Assembly (NCBI GenBank): GCA_964388545.1
Contig: CAYMAV010000001.1
Location: forward strand, 6,272-70,271
DNA from: an uncultured Clostridium sp.
GTDB lineage: Bacteria; Bacillota_I; Bacilli_A; RF39; UBA660
DNA: 64,000 nt
Reading direction: 5' to 3'
The first letter of the stretch is position 1. Each line of letters begins with the position of its first letter. The notes below the pieces were generated by a model. It was not told where the DNA came from. It ran no database searches and worked only from the letters and a program-made list of their open reading frames with translations. The translations under genes were made by a program, and so were the position numbers. This document shows, one piece after another, positions 1 through 21,357 of this stretch.

Positions 1-3000
1 TAGTATCAACTACTAAATTCCCTCCAACAGTACTTTGAGTAAAATTAGTTCTTACATTAAGATAAATATTATCACCTAGATAAACATTATTACTTAAAAG
101 ACTAGAGTTAAGTTCCAAAATCGGATCCTTATTAGTATAGATATTATATATTAATTGTTGTTGCTGAATTCCTATTACCGAAGTTATTATTTGATTATCC
201 GAACTTCTTAACTCCAAAATCATCATCTTGTTGATAACATCCTCATTTATTCCGGCATTCTTAAAATCAAAGATAAATATAAACTCTTCTTCAGCATAAG
301 TATTCTTCCAATATATTTGATTTTTCACCGCATCATCATAATTATTTGTTTGCGTAGTGCTTCCCATTTTTATAAATTTAGATAATTTATAGGCAGCATC
401 TCCATGATCAGCTATTTCAACTCCTTTATCAATATAATCTTGGGCGGTTACAACATAGTAATAGTATTCTGGAAGTGAACCCTCTCGAAGGTCGATCATC
501 GTAATTTTTGTGTTTTCTGGTAAATTATATGTTGAAGATAACACACGATGATACCCTGGTTTATAAATAGTTGTATCTGCTTCTGCATATAAAGAATAAT
601 AAGTTGAAAAACTACTAGTTGAGGTAATATTTACAAGGCTTGTTGGAAACATCTCATATTTTTTACCAGAAGAAATTGTACCCTCATACTCATTACTTTG
701 ATATAATGCTCTATTTAAAGTTACATTTATATTAATTCTTTTAACCTCATTATTTAAATCATCAATTGGAATAATAGCAACTAACGAAATAACTCCTGTT
801 CCCATTTCACCAGATGTTTGTAAGTTTTTGGAGTGATATAAATAAAATAATAAAGTTGGAACCCCGCTTGAATTTTCTTTTTTATAGTTAATACTTCCAC
901 TTATTCTTTCTTCATTTGTTAAAAAAGTTGTTCTACTGTCAGTTACCCATCCTGTATCACTGCTTTCCATTACAAGACTCATAATCCTATCAGCATCCGC
1001 TGAGTTATCGGCTACTCTTGGAATATTTTCTTTTTCAACCAAATTAATATCACTATTAATGCCATCATAATTAAAATTTAAAATTGAAAAAGCAGTATTT
1101 GGATTGGAAAAATTAATTAATGGTAGTTCATAAATACCTAAAGTCGAATATTTAGATGCGGTTAATGTTATATCAAAAGATGCAACTTGTTCACCTATCG
1201 CCCAAATATAGTAGTTAGAATCCTCAGGAGTAGGCTCTACAAAATCAACATAAATTCTATCTGGGTCATTTTTATCATTAAAGACACTATAAAAACCATC
1301 GACCTCATAATTATGATTAATTTTATGAAGACCTAAAACATAACTACCTTTATCAAAATATAAAAGATCTTGGGAAGGCACGATGCTATCATTATTGTAA
1401 TTTGTTTTATAAATTGCCGTATAAACCTTACCATCTCGATCATAACCATACATTCCGAAGAAAGTCATACCAACAACCTCACCATAGGCAGTTATATTTT
1501 CATTAGTTGCAATATTAATATTTTTTCCACCATAGACAAAAAGTTTATTATTAACGTTTCTTGTTACATTTCCATTATCGTCTATTGTTATTATCTCTGG
1601 AGTTTCCAGATTATTTACAATAACCGAACTAGTAAATTTTTTTAACAGATTTGTTCCTGTTTCTAAATATAAAACCGAATTATTAGTTAATTTTAAGCTA
1701 TCAACCCTACTTATTGAAAAAAGCACATCCGAATACTCGTTAGTTCTGTCGGTTGCACCATTAAGCTCAATTACCGAATTACTTAAAGTAACATTTTGAG
1801 CCCTTTGAATTGAAACATTCTTTTTATAATTTGCTTCTGTTCCATAATTTTTTATTAAAATATTGCTATAACCACTAGTACTTGATGCATTTCCGCTACC
1901 AAAAATCGAACCATTAATATTAAATACGGAATGACTTTCGGCATCGATTTTTATATTAATTCCTACCGTTACCGAAATAAAAGTAAAGTCATAAACTTCC
2001 GATCCAGAAGCATTTGCCTCTCCTCCGCCAAATACCGTCCCTCCGATATTTATATTTCCTCTTTTTAACAAGTTATTAATTAAGGTATTAGCTCCAATAT
2101 TTACATTAGCAACTCCATATAAAACCGAAGTATTAGCTCCTCCATAAACATTTCCACCACAAGTAAGACCTGCGATATTTACAACACTTGAAGAATTATT
2201 TAAATCTTCTCTTCCCGTTACTGCAGCATTCCCGCCACCAAAAATATGATTAGTTACTGTTGTTACACCATCGACATTTAAAGTAGTATTTCCATATACC
2301 GTAGCACTTTGACCATTACCTCCACCATAAACACTATGACCGATAATAGAATCCGTAATATGAAGAATAATATTTCCTCTTACTTCTCCTAAGTTTCCGC
2401 CACCATAAATAGAATTTGTTATTCTTGTGTTTTCAACTTTTACATCGACATTATTTTCAACAAACGACTGATTTCCACCACCAAAAACCGATCCACTTAC
2501 ATCGGCATTTCCAACATTTAAATTTACTCTGCTAGTTGGCGCATTATTTCCACCGCCATAAATATCCTTTATATTTCCATAATCGATATTTAAAATAGCA
2601 TTACTTGTTATACCGCCTTGATTATTTCCACCATAAATATAAGTTATATTTGGTTTGTTAGTTGATACCTCAACATTTACATTAGCAGTTGTAACATCTC
2701 CTGCTCTATTAGAGCCACCAAATAAATTTTGAATTTTTACTCCACCTCTAACAATTACATTAGAAGTTGTAACAGAAGCTTCGTTTCCTCCGCCATAAAC
2801 ATTAATAATAGTACCAGTATTCTTTTGTAATATTACATTACTTGTTGTACTATTAGCGTGATTTCCACCACCAAATATATTCGAAATTAATCCTCCATTT
2901 ATCAAGAGATTTGAGCTCTGAGTTAAACCACCATAATTGTTACCACCATAGATATTTGTAAAAGTACCATTAACTGTTTCAATATTAGAACTAACAACCG

Positions 3001-6000
3001 TTCCACTTTGATTAGATCCTCCATAAGTTGTATTAACTATTCCACCCAACAATCTAATATTTGAGCTTTCCGTAATTCCGGCTTGATTTCCTCCACCATA
3101 GATTTCTCCAACAGTTCCAGAGTTCATAACAACATTAGATTTTCTAACATTGGCAAGATTTCCACCACCATAAACAGTGTTTATATTAGTACCACCATTA
3201 ATAACTACATTAGTCTCATCAGATATAGCTTCGTTTCCTCCGCCATAAACTAAAGGAACTTCTCCACCATTTAAAGTAACATAGGAAAGCAAAGTTGTAC
3301 CACCTAGGTTATTACCGCCATAAATCTGATTAGCTTTTCCACTTGTAGTTATAATATTAGAAGCATTAACTGTTCCACTTTCATTAGACCCCCCATATAT
3401 TTTATCAATTGTCGAACCTTTTAAATTAACATTTGTTGTCGTTGCATCTGATCTATTACATCCACCAAAGGCATTAGTTGATACTCCACCATTTAAATTA
3501 ACAGTAGCCGTATTAATAGGTGCATAATTTCCTCCACCATAAAGATTGTTTACTGTTCCACCATTTAAATTTACAGTTATCGTTCCATTAGGTGTACCTT
3601 TAACATCGTTCGCTCCCAACGCGTTATTAACTGTTCCTCCATTAATATTTACCGTAACATTTCCCAAAACATATGGAGTTGTATTTTGATCTCCTTCGCC
3701 ACCACCAAATAAAGCTCCTTCTACGGTTCCTTTATTCATATTTACGGTTGTTGTGTAAGGACTTACATTGCTGTTTGCAACAGTTCCATTAACTACTCCT
3801 AAAGCACTTCCACCATAAACTCTATTTACAATTGGACTTGCTGGATAATTAACATCCCCAATATTAACAACAACATTTTCACTAACAAAAGTACCAGAGT
3901 TTGTTCCCGATACTCCACCTTTTCCACCACCATAGATGCTACCTGCAACTATACCGCCATTAATATCTAAATTAGTACTTCCATGTATTGTTCCACTAAA
4001 ATTACTTCCGCCATAGATACTACCTAAAACATTTCCATCAAGCATTTTAATATATATTTGAGATTTTTTGCTAGTACTTCCCGAACCATTTCTATTTCCA
4101 CCACCATAAATATCTTGGGAAATTGTTCCTCCTAATACATTAATTTTACTTTGAGTTGTTGTTTGACTACCACTTATACCAGTAGCACCAAAATTTCCAC
4201 CACCGTAAACAGAATTTAAAACATTAGCATCTTCATCGATTATTACAAAGGAATTATAAGCTGTCCCAATTGTCGAATACCCATTTCTTCCATTTCCAAT
4301 ACCAAAAACATTACCAGCTGTTGCACCATATAAAGTAAGATTAGCTGCAACAACATCAGGATCTCCTACCATTACATTACCACCAACATAAATAAATGGA
4401 TTGCCTCTTAATGTTCCATCTCCCTCAGAACCAGTATAAGCATTACTTCCACCAAATACATTGTAATTGATCTTACCACCAGTTAATTGAATTATCCTGT
4501 TACCATAGGTTGCTGTAAGTCCTGCTCCTCCAAATACTGCATCGATATTTCCTCCCATTATATAGATATAACTATCATTTAGATTTTCGCGACTAGAATC
4601 CGTTAAAGGTCCTGCTATTAAATTATAGATATAACCACCTTCAACACGACCCATTCTTGATGTGTAATGAGTCCCAGCGTATCTCCCACCGATATAAATT
4701 CCAAAACTATAATCCGTTTTTAATGTTCCAAAACTTCCGCTTTTTACAACAGTATTAAAAGAACTAACATCATTGTTAGAATAATAGTTTCCACTCCAAG
4801 ATCCACCAGCACAAAAATAAAATGTAAGATTAGAATTGTTTTGAGTTATCCTGTCATAGTCATTTCCATAAATACCTTTAGCAAGAACATAATTAGTTGT
4901 TGTACTCCAGGAAGTTGATGCACCATTTGTTAATGATAATGAACTATAGGGTCCACTTTCTACTATCAATTTATACTTTTTAGGATTACTACTACTTCCC
5001 ATACTGCTGTTAGTCCCACCAATAATTGACCTAAAAGCAACGCGAGTTGAACCGCCCGCAGTTATTCCTCTTCCAAGCTTTAGATTATATCCATTACCAT
5101 AAATTGATCTTGTGGTACTAGTAGAACTAGATGGATTATATTCTCCTCCATATGAAGCTGAATAAATATTAATATTTTCTATTCTAACATCGCTATACAA
5201 GTTAACCGCACGGCTACTTATTGTCCATGTCGCCCCACTTACACTACCATTATTTAAAGTAGTTAAAGTAAATGGTTTTGTATTACTATTCCATGTATAG
5301 CTATTATTACTATTCATAACAACGATATTGGTATCTCTAGTAACTAGATAATAATAATCTTTATAGATATCTAAATAATTAGCATTCCCTGCTTGATCTG
5401 CGTATTGAATTAATCTATATAAAGTACATCCGGTTGAGGAATTACAAGTCCCCGACATCAAATTTCCCTGATTATCATATAAACCCGTTATACTTGAATA
5501 CCTTGGAATAATAACCTGCTCATAATAGCCTGACATAACAAAATTATTATTAAAATCATTATGATATGTAATGCTATCTATTTCAAAAACTATCGTATTA
5601 ATGTTAAGCGGTGTCATACCAGTTGCTACTAGATAATAATAATTTGATGATGGTGTTACACCATAATATAGATACTCGGTTTCTGGGGGATTTAGGCTAT
5701 AATAGGTACATCCACCCCAAGAATTACAATAGCAACTGCTTCCTTGCAAACTCCCATAATAATCATAATAACCACTACAACTAGAATTTCTAGGAACAGT
5801 TACTTGTTTATAATATCCCACTAAATCATAAGGTTTATAATTAATAGTATGAGTGTTAATCTTAACCATACTTATATTTTTTAATCCGTTTAAAGCATTA
5901 TTCCAAGACGATGAATTATTAGTTGTTATATAAGAAGTCGTAGCCTCAGTCCAACTAGCATAAAAGTTTACTATCGTAGCATCCGGTATATCCCCATCGT

Positions 6001-6571
6001 AGGTGATGGGAATCTTGGCAAACCTTTCATAGTAAATATTATCAAAGGATATTTCACCATTAGTATAATTTGTATACCAACCATTAAAAGCTTTATTAGA
6101 TGGTCTATTAGAAAAAGGATTATCGATTAACTCTATTAAGATATAATCATCCTCTTTATTAGTGGGAGTACCATTATTATTAACTAGAAAATAATTATAA
6201 TAAACATATAGATATTGAGATTCCGTATTAGATACATATCCTTTTAATCCGTTATTAATATCTTCACCACTATAAATAACCTTAGTCTCAACTAAGTTAA
6301 ATTCATTATAAATATTTTGGTTTTCTCCACTTGGAAGAGCGTTATAGGTAGTAGTTGTATAATTTAGACCTTTATAATAGTTTAGATCTCTTTCTGAATC
6401 ATTAATATAAATTGTCTCTCCAACAATACCAGAAGCTTCTTTTTGCAGTTTAGAGACAAATTCCCCGTGGCTTTTTAAAAAAGTTGAGAGTGCTATTGCT
6501 AGAAACAAAAAAGACAAAAAGAAAAAAACTACTTTTTTTAATTTGATAAGTTCTATTCTTTTTATCTTCAT
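1..6571 (-). CDS. Giant secreted/surface repeat protein (N-terminal >=2190 aa; C-terminus beyond window start). Signal peptide followed by a Cys-rich duplicated module, then >35 tandem ~25-aa YGGGN beta-solenoid-type repeats, then a non-repeat C-terminal region.
   Basis: Minus-strand ATG at 6571-6569 preceded by RBS GAGGGG (revcomp of 6576-6581). Translation begins MKIKRIELIKLKKVVFFFLSFLFLAIALSTFLKS. The frame stays open through position 2. Repeat signature is visible on the + strand as recurring ccaccaccataaa / ccgccataaa about every 75 bp between ~1900 and ~4900. Absent from the ORF track because there is no stop codon in the window. Confidence 0.7.
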   Translation of the reverse strand, partial: MKIKRIELIKLKKVVFFFLSFLFLAIALSTFLKSHGEFVSKLQKEASGIVGETIYINDSERDLNYYKGLNYTTTTYNALPSGENQNIYNEFNLVETKVIYSGEDINNGLKGYVSNTESQYLYVYYNYFLVNNNGTPTNKEDDYILIELIDNPFSNRPSNKAFNGWYTNYTNGEISFDNIYYERFAKIPITYDGDIPDATIVNFYASWTEATTSYITTNNSSSWNNALNGLKNISMVKINTHTINYKPYDLVGYYKQVTVPRNSSCSGYYDYYGSLQGSSCYCNSWGGCTYYSLNPPETEYLYYGVTPSSNYYYLVATGMTPLNINTIVFEIDSITYHNDFNNNFVMSGYYEQVIIPRYSSITGLYDNQGNLMSGTCNSSTGCTLYRLIQYADQAGNANYLDIYKDYYYLVTRDTNIVVMNSNNSYTWNSNTKPFTLTTLNNGSVSGATWTISSRAVNLYSDVRIENINIYSASYGGEYNPSSSTSTTRSIYGNGYNLKLGRGITAGGSTRVAFRSIIGGTNSSMGSSSNPKKYKLIVESGPYSSLSLTNGASTSWSTTTNYVLAKGIYGNDYDRITQNNSNLTFYFCAGGSWSGNYYSNNDVSSFNTVVKSGSFGTLKTDYSFGIYIGGRYAGTHYTSRMGRVEGGYIYNLIAGPLTDSSRENLNDSYIYIMGGNIDAVFGGAGLTATYGNRIIQLTGGKINYNVFGGSNAYTGSEGDGTLRGNPFIYVGGNVMVGDPDVVAANLTLYGATAGNVFGIGNGRNGYSTIGTAYNSFVIIDEDANVLNSVYGGGNFGATGISGSQTTTQSKINVLGGTISQDIYGGGNRNGSGSTSKKSQIYIKMLDGNVLGSIYGGSNFSGTIHGSTNLDINGGIVAGSIYGGGKGGVSGTNSGTFVSENVVVNIGDVNYPASPIVNRVYGGSALGVVNGTVANSNVSPYTTTVNMNKGTVEGALFGGGEGDQNTTPYVLGNVTVNINGGTVNNALGANDVKGTPNGTITVNLNGGTVNNLYGGGNYAPINTATVNLNGGVSTNAFGGCNRSDATTTNVNLKGSTIDKIYGGSNESGTVNASNIITTSGKANQIYGGNNLGGTTLLSYVTLNGGEVPLVYGGGNEAISDETNVVINGGTNINTVYGGGNLANVRKSNVVMNSGTVGEIYGGGNQAGITESSNIRLLGGIVNTTYGGSNQSGTVVSSNIETVNGTFTNIYGGNNYGGLTQSSNLLINGGLISNIFGGGNHANSTTSNVILQKNTGTIINVYGGGNEASVTTSNVIVRGGVKIQNLFGGSNRAGDVTTANVNVEVSTNKPNITYIYGGNNQGGITSNAILNIDYGNIKDIYGGGNNAPTSRVNLNVGNADVSGSVFGGGNQSFVENNVDVKVENTRITNSIYGGGNLGEVRGNIILHITDSIIGHSVYGGGNGQSATVYGNTTLNVDGVTTVTNHIFGGGNAAVTGREDLNNSSSVVNIAGLTCGGNVYGGANTSVLYGVANVNIGANTLINNLLKRGNINIGGTVFGGGEANASGSEVYDFTFISVTVGINIKIDAESHSVFNINGSIFGSGNASSTSGYSNILIKNYGTEANYKKNVSIQRAQNVTLSNSVIELNGATDRTNEYSDVLFSISRVDSLKLTNNSVLYLETGTNLLKKFTSSVIVNNLETPEIITIDDNGNVTRNVNNKLFVYGGKNINIATNENITAYGEVVGMTFFGMYGYDRDGKVYTAIYKTNYNNDSIVPSQDLLYFDKGSYVLGLHKINHNYEVDGFYSVFNDKNDPDRIYVDFVEPTPEDSNYYIWAIGEQVASFDITLTASKYSTLGIYELPLINFSNPNTAFSILNFNYDGINSDINLVEKENIPRVADNSADADRIMSLVMESSDTGWVTDSRTTFLTNEERISGSINYKKENSSGVPTLLFYLYHSKNLQTSGEMGTGVISLVAIIPIDDLNNEVKRININVTLNRALYQSNEYEGTISSGKKYEMFPTSLVNITSTSSFSTYYSLYAEADTTIYKPGYHRVLSSTYNLPENTKITMIDLREGSLPEYYYYVVTAQDYIDKGVEIADHGDAAYKLSKFIKMGSTTQTNNYDDAVKNQIYWKNTYAEEEFIFIFDFKNAGINEDVINKMMILELRSSDNQIITSVIGIQQQQLIYNIYTNKDPILELNSSLLSNNVYLGDNIYLNVRTNFTQSTVGGNLVVDT

Positions 6572-6582
6572 ATTAATCCCCT

Positions 6583-7584
6583 CTATGCTGGATTTATTGT
6601 AAATTGTAAATTAAATACAATGTCATCAAAGGATGCTCCATCTTCGCAGTCAACATCCTGTCCTTCAATCCACATATATATTCTTACTTTTGTTATTCCT
6701 TGTTGTAATCTAAATATTTGTTTAAATTGATCAAAATTCTTTTCAGTATAATAATCAATATTTACTCTTTTAAAATAATTTGGATATTTAGTTTGATTAG
6801 CATCTTTTACATTTACACCAATATCCTTAGTAAATGCGCTTATTAGTCCATCATATGGAATTTGTGGTCCATTAGTATTAGGAATAGTAATTCCGTAGAC
6901 ACTTTGAGCATGTGCTACTGCTGCATCGGTATGAACATCATAATTAGGTTCCCAAATATAAGTAGTAGCAGGAGTTGCTCCCTTAAGAGCTTGTACAACG
7001 GCTGGATTAGTACCTATCGGACGAGTTCCTTGTATCAAATAGGCAACTCTTGTAGAAGCTGCTATTCCTTTTTCTGAATTAGTATCCATATAGACAACAT
7101 TTGAATTAGTACTCATATAAATATCAATATCGTTAAAAGTTCTAAAGAATAGATCAAAAGCGATAAACTTACCAATACTAGTACTCCCATGACTTTCAGT
7201 TTCAATATTTCTTGTCGATGTTAAAATATTATTTCCATCTTCATCGCTTTCCGCTGTACCATAATACATTTTTAGAAAACCAGTAGTTGCATCTATTTCT
7301 TTTCCAGTTGATACCGGCTCCATTCGATCAGGAATTTGATTTGTACTTCCTAGATAACCTTGATCTCTAGCTGAAATTATATCTTCAGGATCTACTACCG
7401 TTGTCCAATTTATCGCATTTGATGATATTTCTATACCACCCGATGCCTCGACATGAATATTAATGCTTCTGATAGTTACAATTCTATTATGAGTAAACCA
7501 AGCATAAGTCGAGGTCGAAAGCATAATCGCCGTAAGTAACAATAAAAATATAAAAAAGTATACTCTTCTTTTATTAATCATCAT
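6583..7584 (-). CDS. TasA/camelysin-like secreted protein (SipW-cognate-type signal peptide)
   Basis: N-terminus MMINKRRVYFFIFLLLLTAIMLSTSTYAWFTHN resembles the TasA/CalY signal region (GTWAAFND / GTFAFFSD). C-terminal segment NLQFTINPA resembles the TasA-family C-terminal (L/I)(Q/E)(F/W)(S/T)F motif. Lies 12 bp upstream of the giant gene on the same strand. Confidence 0.55.
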   Translation of the reverse strand: MMINKRRVYFFIFLLLLTAIMLSTSTYAWFTHNRIVTIRSINIHVEASGGIEISSNAINWTTVVDPEDIISARDQGYLGSTNQIPDRMEPVSTGKEIDATTGFLKMYYGTAESDEDGNNILTSTRNIETESHGSTSIGKFIAFDLFFRTFNDIDIYMSTNSNVVYMDTNSEKGIAASTRVAYLIQGTRPIGTNPAVVQALKGATPATTYIWEPNYDVHTDAAVAHAQSVYGITIPNTNGPQIPYDGLISAFTKDIGVNVKDANQTKYPNYFKRVNIDYYTEKNFDQFKQIFRLQQGITKVRIYMWIEGQDVDCEDGASFDDIVFNLQFTINPA

Positions 7585-7590
7585 TACCTC

Positions 7591-8298
7591 CTATTTATTT
7601 TCTATATGCTCTTCTTTAATATTCATATGAAGTTTAATTTCTCCACCGATAATTGCGTTAACACAATCCGGATCATCACCTTCAAGCCATATTACAATTG
7701 TAAACTTATCAACATCATTAGGTTTAAAATCCTTCCTACTTTCTAATATTGCTATATCATCATCTTTTTCGTAAAACGGCTTTGTCTCTGGTTCTGGTTC
7801 TTTAGTATGACTATTAATCTTGGCATACACAGTTCTTTCTCCATTATGATAAACCATAATACGAACTGCTTCATCAACATTTTTAATGACATCATCTATT
7901 ATGATTTCATACCAGTAATTAATTATTCTTTTACCATCGTTTTCAACGTAAAAAGTATAGGCAATATAGTTTTGACCATTATGAGATCCATCTTTTTCGT
8001 TATGTATATCTTTAGGTAACCACTTAATTGATATATTATCCATAAACTTTATCTCATCCGCATATAATCTTCTTTTAGAGTCTCTAGCCTCGCTATTATC
8101 ATATAAAACAATACCTGATTCTAGTGCTAGATTATTATCAAGGGTAATTACAAAACGACCACCCTTATAAATAATCGACAAAACTATAAAAGTTAAAGTC
8201 ATTAAAACAAAGATTATTAAACCTATTCTTTTAGTTCTTTTTAATCTTTTTTTTCTATTATAAACTTTATCTGCTGTTACTATTATTTCCTTAGCCAT
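7591..8298 (-). CDS. Membrane-anchored paralog of the TasA-like protein (type II anchor; shares the C-terminal W(I/L)EGxDxDC motif)
   Basis: Basic N-terminus KRLKRTKR followed by a TM helix IGLIIFVLMTLTFIVLSIIY. C-terminal IVIWLEGDDPDCVNAIIGGEIKLHMNI parallels YMWIEGQDVDCEDGASFDDIVFNLQFTI in the 6583..7584 protein. 7-bp gap to the next gene. Confidence 0.55.
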   Translation of the reverse strand: MAKEIIVTADKVYNRKKRLKRTKRIGLIIFVLMTLTFIVLSIIYKGGRFVITLDNNLALESGIVLYDNSEARDSKRRLYADEIKFMDNISIKWLPKDIHNEKDGSHNGQNYIAYTFYVENDGKRIINYWYEIIIDDVIKNVDEAVRIMVYHNGERTVYAKINSHTKEPEPETKPFYEKDDDIAILESRKDFKPNDVDKFTIVIWLEGDDPDCVNAIIGGEIKLHMNIKEEHIENK

Positions 8299-8386
8299 TT
8301 ATCATTAATATCCTTTACTATATATGTCAAATTTTACCATATTAAAGTGCATTTTACAATAAAACTGATACATTGAAAAAGTAAAC

Positions 8387-8420
8387 TTGAAATATTTTAC
8401 AATTATTATATTATTAAAAT
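8387..8420 (+). promoter_or_regulatory. Putative sigma-A promoter for the CPBP protease gene
   Basis: TTGAAA at 8387-8392, 17-nt spacer, TATTAT/ATTATT -10 in the divergent intergenic region. RBS AAAGGA lies before the ATG at 8437. Confidence 0.35.
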
Positions 8421-8436
8421 AGAAAGGAATATATAA

Positions 8437-9753
8437 ATGAAAAAAATATCAAAAACTATATCATTTAGTTTCCTGTTTATTATAATACTTATGTTTTTAC
8501 AAATTTTAACAGGAATAGCTACTAATAGTATATTATCTTTACCTAGAGGTATAGATATAATAGCACAAGCTTTTATGAGTGTATTTACGCTAGTAATACT
8601 ATTGCTTTTTGGAAATTCATATGTTTTCAAACAAGAAAAAGAAAAAACAAGAAAAGGTTTATTTTATGGTTTATTCTTTATAATTACTCTTATTCTTATA
8701 ACAATAGCAAATAGTAAAGGATTTTCTTATATACCATCTGTAATTAACCTTTTAATATTTTCGTTTTTGGTTGGTCTTTCAGAAGAGTTATTATGTAGAG
8801 GGTTTTTACTTAATGAACTATTAGAAAAATTCGGTCAAACAAAAAAAGGAATATGGTTTTCTATAGTATTTAGTGGATTCCTTTTTGGTATTATACATAT
8901 TACTAATGTACTTGGTGGAGAACAAGATTTAATTTCTACTATAATCCAAGTAATAAGTGCTACTTCGGCAGGAATGGCATTTGGAATAATTTACTTTAAA
9001 ACTAAAAATATATGGTCATTAATAATATTACATGCTCTATGGGACTTTGCTATATTTCTTGGAGATTTAGTTCCAACAATGGAAATATTTGAAAAAGTTG
9101 TTGTAACATCACCACTTGTTTATCTAAGTTCAATATTAATGTTTGTTGCTAACTTGACTGTTGTAATGCCCTTTGTAAAAAATATTGATGAAGAGCCTAA
9201 AAAGAAAAAAATCGTTATTTGGAGCATAGTAGGAGTTTTACTTGTTTTTGCTGCAGGTATTATTGGTAACATTGATGCTAAACAAGGTCAAAAATATGTA
9301 TTCTATGAAAAGGAAATAAAAGACTTCTCAATTACTACTGTATATAAAGAAAAGCATTTGGTGAGCAATGAAAATGCCACAATTAGTTTATCTTTTAAAG
9401 ATTTTGAACTAACTCTTAAAAACGAAAAAACTAATTATTCTAAAAAATTAGATGTCAAGAATTTAAATAATTATACTGTCGTTGAAAAAGAAAGTAGCTG
9501 CATCATAGCATTCACAAATTCTGTTGATGGTAATTATTATTTAAATTATTATGAAATAAATAAAGTCGATTTAAACGATAGTAATGAATTAATTGACTCA
9601 ATAGAAAAAGGATTTAATAAACATTTATTAAAAAATTCTGGAACACAATTAAATGCGTTAAAAGATGAAAACAATAAATTATATTTACATATTGTTGATT
9701 ATGATTATAACAATTATATATTAGATGATAACAAATTATATATTCTAAAATAA
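8437..9753 (+). CDS. CPBP family (CAAX/Abi) intramembrane metalloprotease with a C-terminal extracytoplasmic extension
   Basis: Three CPBP motifs: LSEELLCRGF (EExxxR), FGIIHITN (FxxxH) and LHALWDF (HxxxD/N-type). Multiple TM helices. About 150 aa of soluble C-terminal extension. Confidence 0.8.
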   Translation: MKKISKTISFSFLFIIILMFLQILTGIATNSILSLPRGIDIIAQAFMSVFTLVILLLFGNSYVFKQEKEKTRKGLFYGLFFIITLILITIANSKGFSYIPSVINLLIFSFLVGLSEELLCRGFLLNELLEKFGQTKKGIWFSIVFSGFLFGIIHITNVLGGEQDLISTIIQVISATSAGMAFGIIYFKTKNIWSLIILHALWDFAIFLGDLVPTMEIFEKVVVTSPLVYLSSILMFVANLTVVMPFVKNIDEEPKKKKIVIWSIVGVLLVFAAGIIGNIDAKQGQKYVFYEKEIKDFSITTVYKEKHLVSNENATISLSFKDFELTLKNEKTNYSKKLDVKNLNNYTVVEKESSCIIAFTNSVDGNYYLNYYEINKVDLNDSNELIDSIEKGFNKHLLKNSGTQLNALKDENNKLYLHIVDYDYNNYILDDNKLYILK

Positions 9754-9759
9754 AATTTA

Positions 9760-9790
9760 AAGCATATATTACTATATATGCTTTTTCTAT
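9760..9790 (+). terminator. Rho-independent terminator
   Basis: Perfect 10-bp stem AAGCATATAT / ATATATGCTT with loop TACT, followed by TTTTCT. Confidence 0.5.
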
Positions 9791-9878
9791 GTCAAATTTT
9801 ACTATCATGCTATTTTTTATTATTTAATTTAAATATATTAAAAAAATATTATGCTATACTTAAAATGAGGAGATACCA

Positions 9879-10463
9879 ATGAAAAAAAAGAAATATCTTT
9901 TGTTGATTTTAGCAGTTTTTTCAATTTGTTTTACAGTTTCAACTATTAATGAGACCTATGCTAAATATGTTAGTAGTGCTAGATCAACAACATTAACTTC
10001 AATAGCAAGATGGAAAATCGTTGTAAATGAAAACGATATTTCTTTAGGTGCATCTACAACTAATTTTATAACACCTGTCTTTCCAGGAAGTGACCATATA
10101 AAAGAGGGGGTTATCGCTCCAAATGTAGAAGGTTATTTTGATTTAGTACTGGATGCTACTAATGTAGATGTATCATTTAATTATAAAATAAATATTGTTC
10201 AATCAGAGACTAACCCAGTAAAAGAATTGGTGGCAACAAGATATACTATTAATAACGGAGAGGCGGTTTTATTTCAAAATGGAATTCAAGAAATTAATGA
10301 AACCATTTTATTTACCTCAGTAGATAGAATAGCCAATATTAGAGTTTATGTTAAATGGGATGATAGCCTTAATTTAATGAATAATAGTGAGGATACTGAT
10401 ACAACTATAAATAACCAAAAAGGAATGATTGAAGTCGTTGTATCTGCTATTCAAATAGAATAA
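9879..10463 (+). CDS. Small secreted protein with a signal peptide and a TasA-like cleavage-region motif (ETYAKY)
   Basis: MKKKKYLLLILAVFSICFTVSTINETYAKY with RBS GAGGAG. The TYAKY motif echoes the TYAWF motif of the 6583 protein. Confidence 0.55.
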   Translation: MKKKKYLLLILAVFSICFTVSTINETYAKYVSSARSTTLTSIARWKIVVNENDISLGASTTNFITPVFPGSDHIKEGVIAPNVEGYFDLVLDATNVDVSFNYKINIVQSETNPVKELVATRYTINNGEAVLFQNGIQEINETILFTSVDRIANIRVYVKWDDSLNLMNNSEDTDTTINNQKGMIEVVVSAIQIE

Positions 10464-14899: not shown

Positions 14900-16066
14900 T
14901 TACCATTTTGTTTTTTTCTCCCAAAATTTAATATATGAAAGAATTCTTTTTAGTAAAACTTTTTTACCAGAAAAAGTATGTTTATACAAGGCTTTTTTAT
15001 ATCCTTTATTTTTGTAAATATTATAGAAATTTACACTATTTGGATTGATCTTTGTTGGTTGCTGAAGATTATGTTGTAAACCATATTTAATATCCGCCTT
15101 TAAACAATCTAAATTATCTTTTAATTTATCAAAAATATCTAAGCCTTTTTTTGAATTGATTAATAATATTGATACTCCCTTATTATCAAAAAAATTTTTA
15201 TATTTTTCTTCTCCCTTCCAAAAATCACCTATCGTTAAATCGGATACTCTATCAACATTTGAATAATGACAGTTATAACAGGAATCCCTTAAACATAAAT
15301 TATTTTGAAATAGCTTTGGATATCTTTGTGAAAAAACAGAAATTGAATCTTCTTTATTATTTAAAATTATATTTTCTACATGTGATTTCCATCCATATTT
15401 TTTACATCTAAACTCATAATCAACTAATTTGTTTTTGTATTTTTTTTCAATTAGATCAACATGATCTTTCCACATACCTGGTGCCATTACACCATGACAG
15501 ATAATATCACATAATATTAAATTATTATAATCTTTTTTTAAAAAAGAACGTAATCCAGCAACTTGACAAGGAGTCCCCGTAAATAAAACTAATCTTTCTT
15601 CTTCTAAATCTTTTTTTAGTTGAAAAAATATATTTAAATCTAAATCACTTTGAACATATTTAGATTTCCTTAAACTATCTCTTCCTTTTTTATCAGTAAC
15701 TCTTTTGTGAATTACCTTCATATCTGAGTCAAATCCAACTCCATAGACAATACCTTTATTTTTTAAAACATAATCTGAAATCGCCGTAAACATCCCACCT
15801 GATGTACTATTATTTCTTACATCAAGATCTTTATGCTTAATAGCATAGCATTCTTTTAATGTATTTTTCATTTTATCAAATTTTTCTTTACTAAAGGGAC
15901 ATGTTTTAACACAAAGCCCACATTGAATACATTTATCATGATTAATTTTTGGATATTTAAATCCCTTATCATCCATAACCATATCAATAGCAGAAACTGG
16001 ACAAACATTTTTACAAGCTGTGCAACCTGAACACTCATCCTTTTTCTTAAAAACTTCTTCTATCAT
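14900..16066 (-). CDS. Coenzyme F420 hydrogenase/dehydrogenase beta-subunit-like 2x[4Fe-4S] protein (pyruvyl-transferase partner in polysaccharide loci)
   Basis: CSGCTACKNVCP and CIQCGLCVKTCP ferredoxin motifs at the N-terminus. FrhB-like C-terminal domain. 4-bp overlap with wzx. Confidence 0.7.
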   Translation of the reverse strand: MIEEVFKKKDECSGCTACKNVCPVSAIDMVMDDKGFKYPKINHDKCIQCGLCVKTCPFSKEKFDKMKNTLKECYAIKHKDLDVRNNSTSGGMFTAISDYVLKNKGIVYGVGFDSDMKVIHKRVTDKKGRDSLRKSKYVQSDLDLNIFFQLKKDLEEERLVLFTGTPCQVAGLRSFLKKDYNNLILCDIICHGVMAPGMWKDHVDLIEKKYKNKLVDYEFRCKKYGWKSHVENIILNNKEDSISVFSQRYPKLFQNNLCLRDSCYNCHYSNVDRVSDLTIGDFWKGEEKYKNFFDNKGVSILLINSKKGLDIFDKLKDNLDCLKADIKYGLQHNLQQPTKINPNSVNFYNIYKNKGYKKALYKHTFSGKKVLLKRILSYIKFWEKKTKW

Positions 16067-17589
16067 ATTTTCTTTCTCCTAAATATCAATAGTATTTTTT
16101 TATAAGCACTCTTTAACATATTATTTTCAAGAACAAAATCAAAAAGCAGAATAATTATAATAGAGAACATCATTGAGATAATAGCATAAATAAGCCAATC
16201 AAAATAAGTATTAGTATTAAACATAAAATAATTTCCTATAAAATAAATAGATGCTCCTAAAATAAAAACTTTTATAATTCTTAAAATTGTAGTTATTCTA
16301 TTTGTTTTAGTAATATATTTAGGAACAAAATAAATTAAATCAATGGTTCTATAAATATTTGATAATATGGAAGCAAATAAAATACCATTTATTCCATATT
16401 TTGGAGTTAAAAGAACTCCAAATATTAAAATTATTAAGGCTTGAATAGTAGTTTGAACTTTAGTTTCTTTATACATTCCAGATGAGTGAATAAGCATGCC
16501 TTGAGGAGTTTTTAAATTATATAACAGACCATTTAATACAAAGAGCAATGCTGTTGTTGGTAAAATATAATTAGCATCTGTTATTCCTTTTGTAAATAAT
16601 CTAATGAAAGGTATTATTAAGACATAAGTTAAAGAATAGGAAATGGTTAATAAATTATAATAAACATACTCAAATAAATTATAAGATTCCCTTAATGTCT
16701 TATCTTCTTTTTTAGCAATTATTTCACCAAAAGACGATGACAACCCACTAATAAATATAGATAATAGATTATTAACACCCATCATTATCATGTTATAAAT
16801 CGTATAAATACTAACACTTATTAAGTCTGAAAATATCGTTAAAATAATATATGGGCTTCCATTTTGAAATGAACCTAATATCTGAAGGTATAAAGCATCC
16901 CATCTCTTTTTTAAAAGATCCTTTTTTGGTTTTAAATTAAAATTAAGATCTTTATATTGTTTTTTTACATATAGTATTAGAATAATAGATCTTGTTAAAA
17001 CCGAGAATAATGCAAAAAATCTAACTATAATAATATCCATGCCTAAAACAGAAAATAGTAAAATAATTAAAGTGTTAATAACAATTCCTATAATAGATGC
17101 AATTGAAATAACATATAATCTTTGATCAGCAGTTAAAAGCGTTCTATATTTGGCAAGAGTAAAAAAGTCTAATATTCCACTCGCACCAATTATAAATACT
17201 AAAGCAATAATTTGAAATTTATTCATTACATCAGTAGAAACAATTAAAGGATAAAATACTGCTAATATTGTTACTAATAATAGAAAAATTAATCCAGATT
17301 TATAATAAAAATGTTTTGTTGTTGATACTACTTCGTTAATTTCCTTTTTATTTTTATTAGCTAACGGTTTGTAAAGAGCAAAAACTGATGCTGCAGAAAG
17401 GCCAGCCTCTACAACCGAAAAATAATTAATAAATTGAGTTACCGAGGATACCAACCCATTTATACTTGATCCATAATAAACTAACATTATTTTAGGAACA
17501 ATAAAACCAGCTAACATTGATACAACGGAAAGCAAAGCAGAAAAAAACACATTAATAAAAAACTTTCTAGTTCTAGTCAATTTATTCAC
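16063..17589 (-). CDS. Wzx-type polysaccharide flippase (MOP superfamily)
   Basis: 508 aa with about 12-14 TM helices, typical polysaccharide-biosynthesis-protein architecture. Confidence 0.7.
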   Translation of the reverse strand: MNKLTRTRKFFINVFFSALLSVVSMLAGFIVPKIMLVYYGSSINGLVSSVTQFINYFSVVEAGLSAASVFALYKPLANKNKKEINEVVSTTKHFYYKSGLIFLLLVTILAVFYPLIVSTDVMNKFQIIALVFIIGASGILDFFTLAKYRTLLTADQRLYVISIASIIGIVINTLIILLFSVLGMDIIIVRFFALFSVLTRSIILILYVKKQYKDLNFNLKPKKDLLKKRWDALYLQILGSFQNGSPYIILTIFSDLISVSIYTIYNMIMMGVNNLLSIFISGLSSSFGEIIAKKEDKTLRESYNLFEYVYYNLLTISYSLTYVLIIPFIRLFTKGITDANYILPTTALLFVLNGLLYNLKTPQGMLIHSSGMYKETKVQTTIQALIILIFGVLLTPKYGINGILFASILSNIYRTIDLIYFVPKYITKTNRITTILRIIKVFILGASIYFIGNYFMFNTNTYFDWLIYAIISMMFSIIIILLFDFVLENNMLKSAYKKILLIFRRKKI

Positions 17590-18679
17590 CTAATGCTTTA
17601 AATAGAAAATTTAAAGATTTTTCCCTTTCTTTTTGTAGAATATTTCCAACTTCATTATAATCTATTTCCTTTTTTATTATCTCATAAGATTTTTTTGAAT
17701 CATCAATTATTCTGCTATCCAATGATAGTTTATTTAGCAAATCTCTTTGCCTACTACCTCTTGTTTTATGTAATATAGTTGCAAATTTTTTATTTAAGAC
17801 TATCGATAGACAAACCCCATGAAAGGAATTTGTTATAACATAAGCGCTTTCATTCATAAAACTTAAAAAGTTTTCCGGAGAAACCTTAGTATCATTTAAC
17901 AATTCTCTTTCAAATTTATAATCAGAACCTACCAATACTACACCCATATCTAATTTATTAGATAAGAGATTAACCGTATCAATAATGTCTTGATTAACCT
18001 CCAACATATAAACAAAAATATATTTTTCTTTAATTAATTTTTCATGAGAAATATCTAGCCAATTTATTTTATCCAATAAAAGAGTTGGATCTAGAACTAC
18101 TTCAATTTTTTTATCATTTAAATTTTTCCTTAAACTTTTCTCACGCACACTAATAAAAGAGTAATCTTTTATATCTTTTTTTAGTTTTTCTATAACTTTT
18201 TTTCCAGGATTATCCTCACCCAAACTAGCACTATAAGATATCTTATTAGCATTATCAAAAAAACTTAAATTATATACACTACTATCATCATTAGTAATTT
18301 TTGCATTCCAAACCTGATCACTACCCGTAATTAAATAGTCATATTGTTTTGACAATAACTTTAACTCGTCTTTATCATTAATCTTCTTAGATATTTTAAT
18401 ATTTTTATTTACAAAACTTTTAAACCTTAATCTTCTCTTATTTGTTTTAGGTAACAAAATTAATCTTTTAAATATCTTTAATGGCTTCAAATAAAATCTT
18501 TCATTATCTGAAAATTCAAATATTCCTTTGTAGTCAAAACCATATACATCGTTAGAATAATAATCGATTACTTCAGTATCATAACCTTTATCATTTAATA
18601 CTTTATTAAGAGCATATGTTTGGAATACTGCCCCATAATTTAGTGCACGATGAAAAGTTAACACACCTATTTTTTTCAT
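17582..18679 (-). CDS. Polysaccharide pyruvyl transferase (CsaB/WcaK family)
   Basis: MKKIGVLTFHRALNYGAVFQTYAL N-terminal hallmark of PS_pyruv_trans. Confidence 0.75.
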   Translation of the reverse strand: MKKIGVLTFHRALNYGAVFQTYALNKVLNDKGYDTEVIDYYSNDVYGFDYKGIFEFSDNERFYLKPLKIFKRLILLPKTNKRRLRFKSFVNKNIKISKKINDKDELKLLSKQYDYLITGSDQVWNAKITNDDSSVYNLSFFDNANKISYSASLGEDNPGKKVIEKLKKDIKDYSFISVREKSLRKNLNDKKIEVVLDPTLLLDKINWLDISHEKLIKEKYIFVYMLEVNQDIIDTVNLLSNKLDMGVVLVGSDYKFERELLNDTKVSPENFLSFMNESAYVITNSFHGVCLSIVLNKKFATILHKTRGSRQRDLLNKLSLDSRIIDDSKKSYEIIKKEIDYNEVGNILQKEREKSLNFLFKALGE

Positions 18680-18686
18680 AAATACC

Positions 18687-19682
18687 TCACTTATATTTTG
18701 CTTTAGGTATAAACCAAAACAACATTAATCCCAAAGTATAATTAAATCTTTTTAAATATTTTCCTTTTAAACCAAATTTTAAATATTTATTTTTTTTATA
18801 ATCTGGAAATTTTTCTTTAACATTCTTTATTGCCAACTTTAACAGTTTTTTATATTTACCAAAATCTTTTCTTTTATTTGCTAGTTTTGCTGCACTACCA
18901 AGCATTGTTGCGTATATATATCTTACATATGAATATTCTAATTCTTCCTTATATTTATTATATATCTTTTTTTCTTTATAAAAATCTATTATTCCATTCA
19001 TATTTTCAATATAATTTGCTATTCTATCATCAAAACTTTTGGATATTCCACCTTTTCTTTGATAATAATTGTAAAAAGGCTTTTTTACAACACCTATTGA
19101 TTTTATATATGGTAACAGTCTATAAAGCATTTCAACATCCTCAAACCAAACACCTTTTTTATACCACAAATCATTATCTATGAATAAAGATTTTTTATAT
19201 ATTTTATTCGTGGCAGTTGGATAAAAGTTTATAAAAATATTTTTATATTCATCAACGTTTAATATATCACTATCTAAACTGCATGAAATTGTTCTATTTC
19301 TACTTACATCATCATAATATTCTAAGGTGTCGCAACAAACTAAATCAAACCCTTTTTCTATTTTTTCATACATATCACCAACCATATTTTCATCAATCCA
19401 ATCATCACTATCTAAAAACATGATATAATCTGCATTCGATTTTTTTATTCCGTAGTTTCTAGTATCACTAAGACCGCCATTCTTCTTTTCATAGGCTTTG
19501 ATTATTTTAGGATACTTTTTTTCATACTTATCAATTATTTTTTGAGAACTATCCGTACTACCATCATTTACAACAATAGCTTCAGATTCTTTGAAATTTT
19601 GCTTAACTACACTATCTAAACATTTTTCTAAATATTTTTCCATATTATAAACAGGTATAATTAAACTAACTTTTGCCTTCAT
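18687..19682 (-). CDS. Glycosyltransferase family 2
   Basis: SLIIPVYNMEKYLEKCLDSVVKQ, VVNDGSTD, DSDDW motifs. Confidence 0.8.
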   Translation of the reverse strand: MKAKVSLIIPVYNMEKYLEKCLDSVVKQNFKESEAIVVNDGSTDSSQKIIDKYEKKYPKIIKAYEKKNGGLSDTRNYGIKKSNADYIMFLDSDDWIDENMVGDMYEKIEKGFDLVCCDTLEYYDDVSRNRTISCSLDSDILNVDEYKNIFINFYPTATNKIYKKSLFIDNDLWYKKGVWFEDVEMLYRLLPYIKSIGVVKKPFYNYYQRKGGISKSFDDRIANYIENMNGIIDFYKEKKIYNKYKEELEYSYVRYIYATMLGSAAKLANKRKDFGKYKKLLKLAIKNVKEKFPDYKKNKYLKFGLKGKYLKRFNYTLGLMLFWFIPKAKYK

Positions 19683-21357
19683 TTTTATCTCCTCCTATTT
19701 TTTTATTAAAAAAGAATGATATTAATAAAGAAAGAATAATAGTTGGTAACATTTCATCAAAAACATGACCACCAAAATAACTAGAAAATATTACTAGAGA
19801 AACACTTGCTACAGGAATAACTTTTTCAATTTTAAAATATTTTTCCCTGTCTTTTAAAAATAAATAGATAGCAAACATAATAAATAAAAAATAAGGAGAA
19901 ATTAATATCAACAGTCCAACTAAACCAATGGTATAATAATGAACTAAAATATCTTTTTCTAAATACAAATTATATCCACCACTATTTCTAAAATTCGAAT
20001 ACGAAAGACCAAATAGATTATAATAAATTCCTGCTTTATTTCTAGATCTTTCCATCATACGACTAAATATTTTTTGCTGAACTTTCCTTGTATTATTATA
20101 TGACTCCTCAGGTTCTTTTATTAGATTATTCCAAAATTCAGCATCATAATCTTTAGGATATATCTCGGTATAAAATTTTTCATAGATTACGCTTTCCTCA
20201 ATTTTTTGAATTTCTTTTTCTTTTTCACCATCATCAACTCTTCCCCTATATCGATTTGTAATAAAATCTTCAAACAAGAAAAACAGTGATAATATTAATA
20301 CAAAATATACCGCATAGCTACTAAATCTTTTTCTTTTATAAATAATATATCCAAAAGAAAACATAAATAAAATAAAAAGAATAATGTATAATAGCGAAAA
20401 GCTGATATTTTCATATATTAATTCAACCCAATTATATCTTAAAAAAATTGGCGAAAATAAAGATAAAATTAAATGAAAATATAAAATATATAATAGTTTA
20501 ATAATCCTTTTATAATTAAATTTCTTTTTATTCTTAATCTTTTTAACTATTATATAAACAAATAAAATGAAAAAAGATAAATATGTTCCTAAAAAGGCGG
20601 TTCTTGTACCAATCATGAGCATTGAAAGCAATATTAATAATAGTCCTACTAAATATTTAATATCATCATATTTATAATAAAAATATAAGTTAAATGGTAA
20701 TAACATTAATAAAACATTACCTATTTCATTAGCATATAAAAAGAACCCTTTTGATGTCATCTCAATAAAATTATAAATTGAATTTGAATATGAAAACCAT
20801 TCAAAAATACTCATTTTAATAAATTCTACTTCTTCTGAATAAGATACCAAAGAAATTTTAAGAAAATTAGTTAATACAATTGTTAAAGATATAATTAATG
20901 AAAGATAGTATATTAATTTATAAACTTCTTTTTTCTCAAACTTTAAATTATAAATAATTATAAATAGGAATATTGGAATATTCATTCTAAATATATAAAA
21001 TAATTCATCAATTATTGAAAAGACATAGTTATTAGGCAAAAAGTTTATATTTAGTGCTCCAACTATATGAAATATAGAATATATTAGAATAATTAGTGCA
21101 TATATTGAAACAAATTTTATAAACTTCATCTTGTCTTTGCAACCCAAAAAAAAGTTAATAAAAATATATATAAACCCAAAAATCCTAAATATTGTAGCAG
21201 GCGCCACAGTAAGTTTTGGTATCAAGCTATCTGTAAAGAAAAAACCATACGACAAAAAAGGTTGTATCAAGATATAAAGAAAAACAACCTTCTTTAAACT
21301 ATCTTTATTTTTTATATCAAACTTTATGTAATTCATTTTATAGCTCCTATTTTTCAA
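19666..21357 (-). CDS. Wzy-like polysaccharide polymerase / O-antigen-ligase-like multi-pass membrane protein
   Basis: 563 aa with more than 10 TM helices and a large cytoplasmic or extracytoplasmic loop. Position in the cps locus. Confidence 0.5.
   Translation of the reverse strand: MKNRSYKMNYIKFDIKNKDSLKKVVFLYILIQPFLSYGFFFTDSLIPKLTVAPATIFRIFGFIYIFINFFLGCKDKMKFIKFVSIYALIILIYSIFHIVGALNINFLPNNYVFSIIDELFYIFRMNIPIFLFIIIYNLKFEKKEVYKLIYYLSLIISLTIVLTNFLKISLVSYSEEVEFIKMSIFEWFSYSNSIYNFIEMTSKGFFLYANEIGNVLLMLLPFNLYFYYKYDDIKYLVGLLLILLSMLMIGTRTAFLGTYLSFFILFVYIIVKKIKNKKKFNYKRIIKLLYILYFHLILSLFSPIFLRYNWVELIYENISFSLLYIILFILFMFSFGYIIYKRKRFSSYAVYFVLILSLFFLFEDFITNRYRGRVDDGEKEKEIQKIEESVIYEKFYTEIYPKDYDAEFWNNLIKEPEESYNNTRKVQQKIFSRMMERSRNKAGIYYNLFGLSYSNFRNSGGYNLYLEKDILVHYYTIGLVGLLILISPYFLFIMFAIYLFLKDREKYFKIEKVIPVASVSLVIFSSYFGGHVFDEMLPTIILSLLISFFFNKKIGGDKNEGKS

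Follow-up and report, generated by a model that had tools for sequence, protein, structure and literature searches.

An unannotated, lineage-restricted family of giant proteins with a predicted beta-solenoid rod and a conserved gene cluster

TasA-superfamily fibre loci are reported to bring together a dedicated signal peptidase of the TIGR02228 type, membrane anchors, minor subunits and tip proteins of diverse structure (bioRxiv 10.64898/2026.01.04.697558). Those considered here are tapA-sipW-tasA of B. subtilis, sipW-bsaA of C. perfringens, and the loci for the archaeal AbpA/AbpX bundling pili, Tafi, the Saci_0406 threads and the cannulae. Very large extracellular beta-solenoid proteins have also been described in small-genome, host-associated Bacilli, namely Giant1-5 of Apilactobacillus kunkeei and the SRRP of Limosilactobacillus reuteri (PMC12863079). 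A third set for comparison is formed by the beta-helical adhesins of diderm bacteria: the two-partner secretion (TPS) exoproteins EtpA, filamentous haemagglutinin (FHA) and HxuA, the autotransporter passengers EspC, Hbp and pertactin, and the chlamydial Pmp proteins. We describe here a gene for a giant protein that lies at the start of a 64,000-nucleotide (nt) stretch of DNA from an uncultured Clostridium sp. (GenBank contig CAYMAV010000001.1, positions 6,272 to 70,271), hereafter the window. The family of this giant is unannotated and lineage-restricted, and in relatives its gene sits within a conserved cluster of accessory genes. On balance, and by a narrow measure, we favor the view that the giant is the exported shaft or adhesin of a SipW-dependent surface appendage, acting together with its operon partners.

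The giant gene starts on the minus strand with an ATG at 6571-6569. Translation of the reverse complement of 1-6571 gave 2,190 codons up to the window edge without an in-frame stop, in agreement with the open frame that the original prediction had translated by eye. As that prediction also stated, the gene had been missed by the list of open reading frames (ORFs). Only ORFs that end inside the window are listed there, and those running past its end are not. A full-length copy that is 99% identical (P0001, from locus L001 of another metagenome) has 2,427 residues, and the last 237 codons of the 7.3-kb gene therefore fall outside the window. The GAGGGG that had been read as a ribosome-binding site is in place at 6583-6578 and overlaps the TAG stop of the preceding gene, its first G being the last base of that stop. 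The preceding gene, for a 333-residue protein, ends 11 nt before the giant's ATG, and the gap between it and the next gene upstream, for a 235-residue protein, is 6 nt; the three genes are therefore co-operonic. Comparison with the 99%-identical strain gave 13 synonymous and 11 non-synonymous codon differences (a ratio of non-synonymous to synonymous change, pN/pS, of ~0.24), and homologues are aligned and conserved over the entire length of the giant in the family alignment. The giant is a real gene under purifying selection, and its conservation together with this selection rules out an artefactual ORF. A scan for promoters and terminators was uninformative because the counts did not exceed those of shuffles in this AT-rich DNA, and tRNAs were the sole matches in an Rfam scan. 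The gene and the regions of its product are as follows.

1..6571, minus strand: giant gene, codons 1-2190 of 2427 (open frame; full-length 99%-identical copy; pN/pS)
6578..6583, minus strand: Shine-Dalgarno sequence GAGGGG, 6 nt upstream of the ATG at 6571 (sequence read)
6464..6571, minus strand: signal peptide or signal anchor, residues 1-36 (hydropathy; motif in 42 family members and in small exported neighbors)
5282..6463, minus strand: N-terminal extracellular region, residues 37 to ~430 (alignments A2 and A6)
1763..5281, minus strand: predicted beta-solenoid rod, residues ~431-1603 (AlphaFold2 model; no significant PDB fold match)
2294..3580, minus strand: canonical repeat core, 17 contiguous YGGGN units of 24-26 residues, residues 998-1426 (motif and hidden Markov model scans, autocorrelation, DNA-motif spacing)
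2..1762, minus strand: post-solenoid region, residues 1604-2190, continuing to residue 2427 beyond the window (alignment A7)

The central part of the giant is a tandem repeat. Autocorrelation with BLOSUM scores over residues 661-1540, which had been suggested as a check, peaked at a lag of 25 residues (z=6.7 vs shuffles) and then at 50, 74/75, 99 and 124, while the flanks of the repeat region displayed no comparable periodicity. A hidden Markov model (HMM) built from the units yielded the consensus SNVVLNGGTINNIYGGGNQAGVTTS, which the consensus given in the original prediction matches, and located 31 units at residues 667-1568. The earlier claim of more than 35 tandem units at residues 560-1550 was thus right as to the tandem repeats and a slight overcount as to their number. 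The motif [YFLA]GG[GSNAC] occurs 30 times in the giant with a core spacing of 24-26 residues, and its trace on the plus strand, expected about every 75 bp, was recovered as CCNCCRWA, with 31 occurrences in 1-6571 vs 9 in the other 57 kb and a spacing of 72-78 bp across 2322-3534. Each coil holds two short Gly/aromatic/Asn motifs, NGGx[VI] and [YF]GG[GSN]N, and the consensus has no conserved acidic position or Asp. A tandem, coil-length repeat with conserved turn residues (about 18-30 residues per unit) is characteristic of beta-solenoid adhesins, and the giant has one. An RTX beta-roll (GGxGxD nonapeptides, 18-residue turn) was rejected on the grounds of a period of 25 rather than 9 or 18 and of the missing Asp. 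Tandem Repeats Finder detected no DNA tandem array in the gene, and the units are therefore old and diverged. The solenoid of a homologue at L002:10001-17599 contains three near-identical 75-residue blocks of three units each, LNGG.ITNVFGGGNKTSQNITNI.LKGSTVTNIYGGSNETGNVNTSNITVTSGTVEAIYGGNNIGGITDKSY; in some lineages, therefore, the number of repeat copies has not yet become fixed.

AlphaFold2 (AF2) was used to model residues 430-1620 (1,191 residues) from a 42-sequence family alignment. The resulting model (predicted local distance difference test score, pLDDT, 90.0; predicted template-modelling score, pTM, 0.75) is all-beta, as in beta-helical adhesins, and consists of short strands at regular spacing and nothing else. 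It is beta-rich and periodic over a wider span than the motif-defined units, from residue ~430 to ~1600. A parallel beta-solenoid is supported by this prediction, and the parallel beta-helix stalk of the original prediction finds support both in the model and in its weak beta-helical neighbors in a Foldseek search. The usual rise of a beta-solenoid is 4.8 Å per coil. A rod of ~1,170 residues at 25 residues per coil would comprise ~45 coils and, because this rise is assumed for each, would be ~22 nm long. Foldseek searches of the PDB with the solenoid model and with a model of the 333-residue protein returned nothing at E<=0.001. For the solenoid the best E was 0.58 with template-modelling scores <=0.25, so that no significant match to a solved beta-helical adhesin was obtained; the weak neighbors were EtpA, the MpIBP beta-helix, CsgA, EspC, VacA, Hbp, RsaA, and the TPS domains of HxuA and FHA, the last two at E 7-10.

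Sequence searches were equally empty. The giant had zero matches at E<=1 in Pfam, NCBIfam and the PDB sequences, and the Pfam and NCBIfam libraries searched include Pmp, haemagglutinin (Fil_haemagg) and PATR models. Accordingly, the 2,190 residues in the window matched no model of the chlamydial Pmp/POMP repeat (GGA[ILV]/FxxN), and neither a TPS secretion domain nor Fil_haemagg repeats were detected in the giant with these libraries. Searches of the PDB with phmmer and with profiles found nothing for the whole giant or for its N-terminal region (residues 37 to ~430), post-solenoid region and C-terminal region. The repeat family, which had not been recognized in the original prediction, gave no confident match to any well-characterized repeat family in Pfam, NCBIfam, the PDB or Foldseek/PDB, and the solenoid falls into none of the solved or catalogued families. 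Neither this repeat nor its gene cluster was found described in literature searches.

The regions on either side of the solenoid differ in conservation. Residues 37 to ~430 are Y/N-rich and form the least conserved part of the giant (mean column identity 41%), with an invariant F162 N163 G164 W165 (FNGW), invariant C282, C376 and C382, and two modules of ~95 residues that each carry a conserved C-x5-C pair. Residues 1556-2000 are the best conserved (mean column identity 62% in alignment A7), and the last 427 residues reach 55% (alignment A8). The post-solenoid region contains invariant D, R, H and E residues and is confined to the giant architecture, occurring in 228 clusters at 50% identity among 1.84 billion representatives. 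The giant as a whole is N/S/T/G/Y-rich, and this composition and the conserved Cys pairs are typical of extracellular proteins, which argues for export.

At least 556 homologous clusters of 2,365-3,279 residues were identified, and relatives are found in 333 species-representative genomes, one of which is a closed 1.26-Mb chromosome (L010). All matches listed come from uncultured organisms of guts, rumens or digesters and carry the labels Bacilli, Mycoplasmatota, Tenericutes, Acholeplasmataceae and Clostridium sp. CAG:451, apart from some bins whose labels are obviously wrong. Nearly all of the 120 homologues listed are without a Pfam domain, and one (P0089) was named an 'S-layer family protein' by the NCBI pipeline; the SLH, CWB2 or other wall-binding module that would place the giant in the S-layer class is absent from it. 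A few homologues carry inserted Pfam domains, as in P0090 (residues 337-573 and 1617-1794), P0075 (residues 324-566) and P0030 (residues 1214-1393). Gly_rich_2 is inserted into the head region, and Fib_succ_major lies inside the solenoid or behind it. The inserts suggest that a common stalk bears payload domains in a modular way; lectin-like or binding-type domains of this kind are the pattern expected of adhesin stalks with payload.

The original prediction of an exported protein with a signal peptide is supported by a single hydrophobic segment at the N-terminus. Kyte-Doolittle hydropathy (19-residue window) has its maximum of 2.63 at residue 14 and never exceeds 1.25 elsewhere in the full-length giant. 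Residues 1-36 comprise a K/R-rich n-region and a hydrophobic core, followed by S-H-G|E-F-V-S with predicted cleavage after G36; across 42 members the family version of this signal end is [KT]-T-[YF]-[GSA]-[ED]-[FY]-V-[ST]. A C-terminal anchor (LPxTG, SLH or CWB) had been envisaged for the full gene. In the 2,427-residue protein, motif and hydropathy scans found no LPxTG-like motif and no C-terminal transmembrane (TM) segment, and no SLH, CWB2 or other wall-binding Pfam domain was matched, so that of the two marks of a surface adhesin, export and retention, only a signal-like N-terminal segment was seen.

Three neighbors in the window belong with the giant.

6583..7584, minus strand: 333-residue exported beta-sandwich protein, signal end S-T-Y-A|W-F-T, directly upstream in the same operon (homologue of i332, below)
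7591..8298, minus strand: 235-residue protein with a K/R cytoplasmic tail and one TM helix (homologue of h229; hydropathy, motif check)
9879..10463, plus strand: 194-residue small exported protein, signal end E-T-Y-A|K-Y-V-S, divergently transcribed (homologue of g223; alignment A5)

The 235-residue protein is 60% identical to a 229-residue protein of locus L002, shows cross-matches to the 332/339-residue family and has no cleavage-type signal motif. By its appearance it spans the membrane once and stays uncleaved, which makes it a candidate membrane anchor. The 194-residue protein is 43% identical to a 223-residue protein of L002 and is a member of the cluster's small-subunit family. This family and that of the 333-residue protein are distantly related over the signal and the first ~100 residues (hhalign probability 74%, E 2.7e-5). 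In the AF2 model of the 333-residue protein, pLDDT is ~67 at residues 31-50, the mature N-terminus, and >88 afterwards. In donor-strand-complemented filaments (TasA superfamily, chaperone-usher-like), the N-terminal strand of one subunit completes the fold of the next, and the lower pLDDT at this end of the 333-residue protein is at most a hint of such an arrangement. The motif W-[IL]-E-G-[DQ]-D-x-D-C-E/V, whose Cys is invariant, recurs in the C-terminal part of both the 235- and the 333-residue protein; the two are therefore paralogues, one membrane-anchored and the other secreted. A 438-residue CPBP/CAAX-type intramembrane protease with a long C-terminal extension is encoded between the 235- and 194-residue genes (8437-9753, plus strand); the close relatives L086 and L087 have no such gene there.

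The original prediction had called the giant co-operonic with two TasA-like genes. The operon is confirmed by the gaps given above, whereas the likeness to TasA fails at the sequence level, where homology was rejected with a single TasA sequence, with a TasA family profile and with Pfam. Peptidase_M73/TasA (PF12389) was matched neither by the 333- and 235-residue proteins nor by 26 members of the 333-residue family or 24 of the 194-residue family. Profiles of the 333-residue and small-subunit families found nothing significant in the PDB, TasA chains included, and hhalign against a 25-sequence TasA-family profile gave probabilities of 0.2% and 1.5% for the neighbor families. NCBIfam, whose library would cover models of SipW-substrate signal peptides, gave no family for the neighbors at E<=1 or 0.1, and neither library returned anything meaningful for the 333- and 235-residue proteins. 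The signal ends STYA|WFT and ETYA|KYVS of the 333- and 194-residue proteins do resemble the GTWA|AFN of TasA, and the cluster in related genomes includes SipW/archaeal-type signal peptidases (below); it is reasonable to regard the 333-residue protein as analogous to TasA.

The accessory genes were traced by tblastn of the cluster proteins of L002 against 85 giant-bearing loci. Co-location with the giant was observed for l493 (77 of the 85 loci), h229 (74; the 235-residue homologue), m193 (64), g223 (63; the 194-residue homologue), q339 (62), o174 and p191 (61 each), n193 (60), a303 and c503 (59 each), d368 (53), e186 (52), i332 (50; the 333-residue homologue), f208 (49) and b301 (45). The set has been kept together through several block rearrangements. 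The cluster of ~16 genes spans ~24 kb, or ~2% of the 1.26-Mb genome (L002:1894-22525, also in L004 and L006-L085), and is only partly present in the window (6583-10463). It surrounds the giant in most of the relatives, which amount to hundreds of uncultured Bacilli. Its products include two SipW/archaeal-type signal peptidases, a third that has degenerated, about eight exported proteins and several cytoplasmic proteins with no annotation. The two peptidases, e186 and o174, score 77.3 and 70.6 bits against TIGR02228 (cut-off 51.85), and m193 is their degenerate relative. By far the best conserved cluster protein is c503 (77% column identity), which combines a TM segment with a McrB-type AAA+ core that carries Walker A GISGTGKTS and Walker B ILDEMN (PDB McrB, E 2e-4; PADLOC PDC-M26A, E 2e-32). 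It is followed by d368 (the pair at L002:3717-6344), a DUF2357 protein with no recognizable nuclease that we read as McrC-N-like. This pair may be a defense module or part of an appendage machinery. The proteins l493, b301 and k37 are cytoplasmic, and a profile of l493 matched designed coiled coils only.

The exported proteins of the cluster have a signal end in common. It reads T-Y-[AG]-[KL]-[YF] in the small g and n proteins, [TS]-[FY]-S-[RK]-Y in the p family and [ST]-Y-A-W-F in the i and q families. Taken with that of the giant, these amount to [ST]-[YF]-[AGS]-x-[YF] after a hydrophobic segment in about eight exported proteins. All follow the -3/-1 rule and parallel the GTWA|AFN of TasA, the mature start of which was checked against the sequence in the fibre structure. 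Of the features expected of SipW dependence, signal ends that resemble that of TasA are present, and TIGR02228 peptidases occur in 61 and 52 of the 85 related loci, with no SipW gene in the window or L001.

The surroundings of the locus differ between genomes. Around the reduced, six-gene locus the flanking DNA varies and has the look of an island. In L086, a 70%-identical relative, an SLATT_4 and SMODS/AGS_C (CBASS-like) pair lies directly beside the locus (L086:4876-6680). Further along the window, a minus-strand gene run at 14900-23466 resembles a surface-polysaccharide biosynthesis cluster as judged from reading its translations, with Fe-S/F420-dehydrogenase-like, 508-residue flippase-like, pyruvyl-transferase-like, family 2 glycosyltransferase and 563-residue O-antigen-ligase-like proteins.

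The appendage reading is put forward because the cluster is kept in 85 loci, because its peptidases belong to TIGR02228, and because its exported proteins have a common signal end. The giant would be a Sec-exported, 2,427-residue extracellular fibre protein laid out as an N-terminal signal, a variable Cys-containing head, a rigid solenoid rod of ~1,170 residues and a conserved C-terminal region of ~830 residues. Its signal peptide would be cut by a SipW/archaeal-type signal peptidase, and it may work with the 235-residue single-pass membrane protein, the 333-residue protein and the 194-residue exported beta-sandwich protein. Its part would be that of the long shaft or of the adhesin in a surface appendage or a matrix fibre of uncultured host-associated Bacilli, in an arrangement analogous to the tip, minor-subunit and anchor set of TasA-superfamily fibre loci. 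Several points weigh against this. Cleavage, polymerization and surface exposure of the giant are putative, as are its partnership with the neighbors, its adhesive or fibre role and the choice of its cell-facing end. No sequence or profile link places the neighbors in the TasA superfamily. The 64-kb window and L001 both lack a gene for a SipW-type peptidase, and the window's clade has just a reduced form of the locus, g-h-i-GIANT-k-l, with unrelated genes on either side. Moreover, l493, b301 and k37 and the McrB-like AAA+/DUF2357 pair are left unexplained by the appendage model, and we know of no TasA-type system with such cytoplasmic proteins or such a pair.

The alternative that survives best, although we consider it unlikely, is a stand-alone surface coat or adhesin, with an uncleaved N-terminal signal anchor, a solenoid spacer and ligand-binding C-terminal domains, its neighbors being functionally separate. 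The window's clade does retain the giant without an adjacent peptidase module, and the sole hydrophobic segment is N-terminal, with no other anchor, in a family many of whose hosts are labelled Mycoplasmatota or Tenericutes, where wall anchors would be useless. The 'S-layer family protein' name of one homologue points the same way, but no SLH or Pfam S-layer domain was found. The conserved T-Y-G-E-F-V-S of the giants matches the cleavage-type motif of the small exported neighbors, which a plain anchor would not need. Functional separation of the neighbors is also hard to square with the upstream gaps of just 11 nt and 6 nt and with h229, i332 and l493 adjoining the giant in 50-77 of the 85 loci.

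The right-handed beta-helix is the usual scaffold in pectate lyases, in polysaccharide lyases and hydrolases, and in phage tailspikes. A secreted carbohydrate-active enzyme or tailspike-like depolymerase is nevertheless improbable. The 17 near-perfect G/N-rich coils are without the loop insertions of catalytic grooves, Pectate_lyase, Beta_helix, NosD and CAZy-type models were unmatched (Pfam/NCBIfam, E<=1), no lyase or tailspike was among the Foldseek matches, and no phage genes lie nearby. What such an enzyme would have on its side is the predicted fold itself, a gut or rumen host, where glycan degradation is central, and the highly conserved post-solenoid domain with its invariant D, R, H and E.

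It is very improbable that the giant is a toxin or polymorphic effector secreted on a beta-helical stalk in the style of CdiA or FHA. The C-terminal end is conserved and not polymorphic (62% and 55% column identity in A7 and A8), downstream k and l are conserved, and there is no small gene of immunity type that changes along with the C-terminus. Neither a TPS domain nor a TpsB partner nor any toxin domain of Pfam was found, and the host is monoderm. On the side of such a protein stand the weak fold neighbors among TPS exoproteins (EtpA, HxuA, FHA) and VacA and the McrB-like candidate defense-type protein in the cluster. A phage tail fibre is ruled out by the absence of phage genes and by conserved chromosomal synteny.

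An extension of the appendage reading, which we offer tentatively and hold to be doubtful as a whole, is that the giant is the shaft or tip of an undescribed multi-subunit appendage encoded by the entire ~16-gene cluster. The cluster would supply two dedicated archaeal/SipW-type signal peptidases to process about eight proteins with the common signal end, and a membrane-anchored McrB-family AAA+ GTPase, with a nuclease-less McrC-like (DUF2357) partner, to drive or gate assembly or extrusion. If true, this would be a new class of monoderm surface machinery and a non-defense use of a McrBC module; SipW-dependent fibre systems would, provided that the cluster forms a single machine, gain a new architecture with a McrB-like motor. 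Carriers of the giant are common gut inhabitants of humans, rodents and ruminants; their genomes measure ~1.2 Mb, and almost none has been cultured. The 7.3-kb gene and its accessory cluster are likely a major determinant of the surface biology of these hosts because of the purifying selection, the spread over 333 species and the conserved accessory cluster. Neither Pfam nor NCBIfam has a family for the giant or for the majority of its cluster partners; defining the family would improve the annotation of thousands of metagenomic proteins and would provide a marker and possible antigen for the hosts.

Compared with known systems, the giant resembles the RTX adhesin MpIBP (Ca2+-bound beta-helix of region IV, 3p4g) in being a repetitive, Gly/Asn-rich beta-solenoid in what may be a giant adhesin, and MpIBP ranked second among the Foldseek matches, not significantly so (best E 0.58). 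Coils of RTX proteins and MpIBP are nonapeptide- or 19-residue-based with Ca2+-binding Asp; the giant differs in its period of 25, in having no conserved acidic position and in having no type I secretion system signal. With the diderm adhesins it has in common a long, single-chain, predicted parallel beta-helix of ~20-25 residues per coil with Gly/Asn-rich turns, and the proposed role as a rigid stalk presenting binding regions. The repeat motifs of Pmp are GGA[ILV] and FxxN, and the giant likewise has two short Gly/aromatic/Asn motifs per coil. It differs from this group in giving no significant match (best E 0.58, template-modelling score <=0.25; none at E<=1 in Pfam/NCBIfam), in its monoderm host with no TpsB or beta-barrel translocator, in an N-terminal signal that appears to be of the SipW-substrate type, and in a unique and conserved C-terminal region of ~830 residues.

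Giant1-5 and SRRP are similar in taking up a noticeable share of a 1.2-1.5 Mb genome (PMC12863079), the L010 chromosome here being 1.26 Mb. They consist of a short N-terminal binding solenoid followed by alpha-helical repeats and an SH3b-like C-terminus (PMC12863079), whereas the solenoid here is a predicted shaft of ~1,170 residues in a different gene neighborhood; SRRP was not among the Foldseek matches of the solenoid model.

The TasA-superfamily loci differ from this cluster in that its proteins have no detectable sequence or profile homology to TasA/Peptidase_M73. Literature searches found no such locus with a 2,400-residue beta-solenoid protein, none with two peptidases and a degenerate third, and none with a membrane-anchored McrB-like AAA+/DUF2357 pair and cytoplasmic proteins such as l493 and b301. 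The likeness lies in the plan of the locus: a dedicated TIGR02228/SipW-type peptidase in genomes related to that of the window, several small exported beta-sandwich proteins with a conserved signal end (T-x-A|x-F), a single-pass membrane protein of 235 residues that may act as an anchor, and the giant itself as a large, structurally different extra component, comparable to the tip proteins of the AbpX and Tafi loci.

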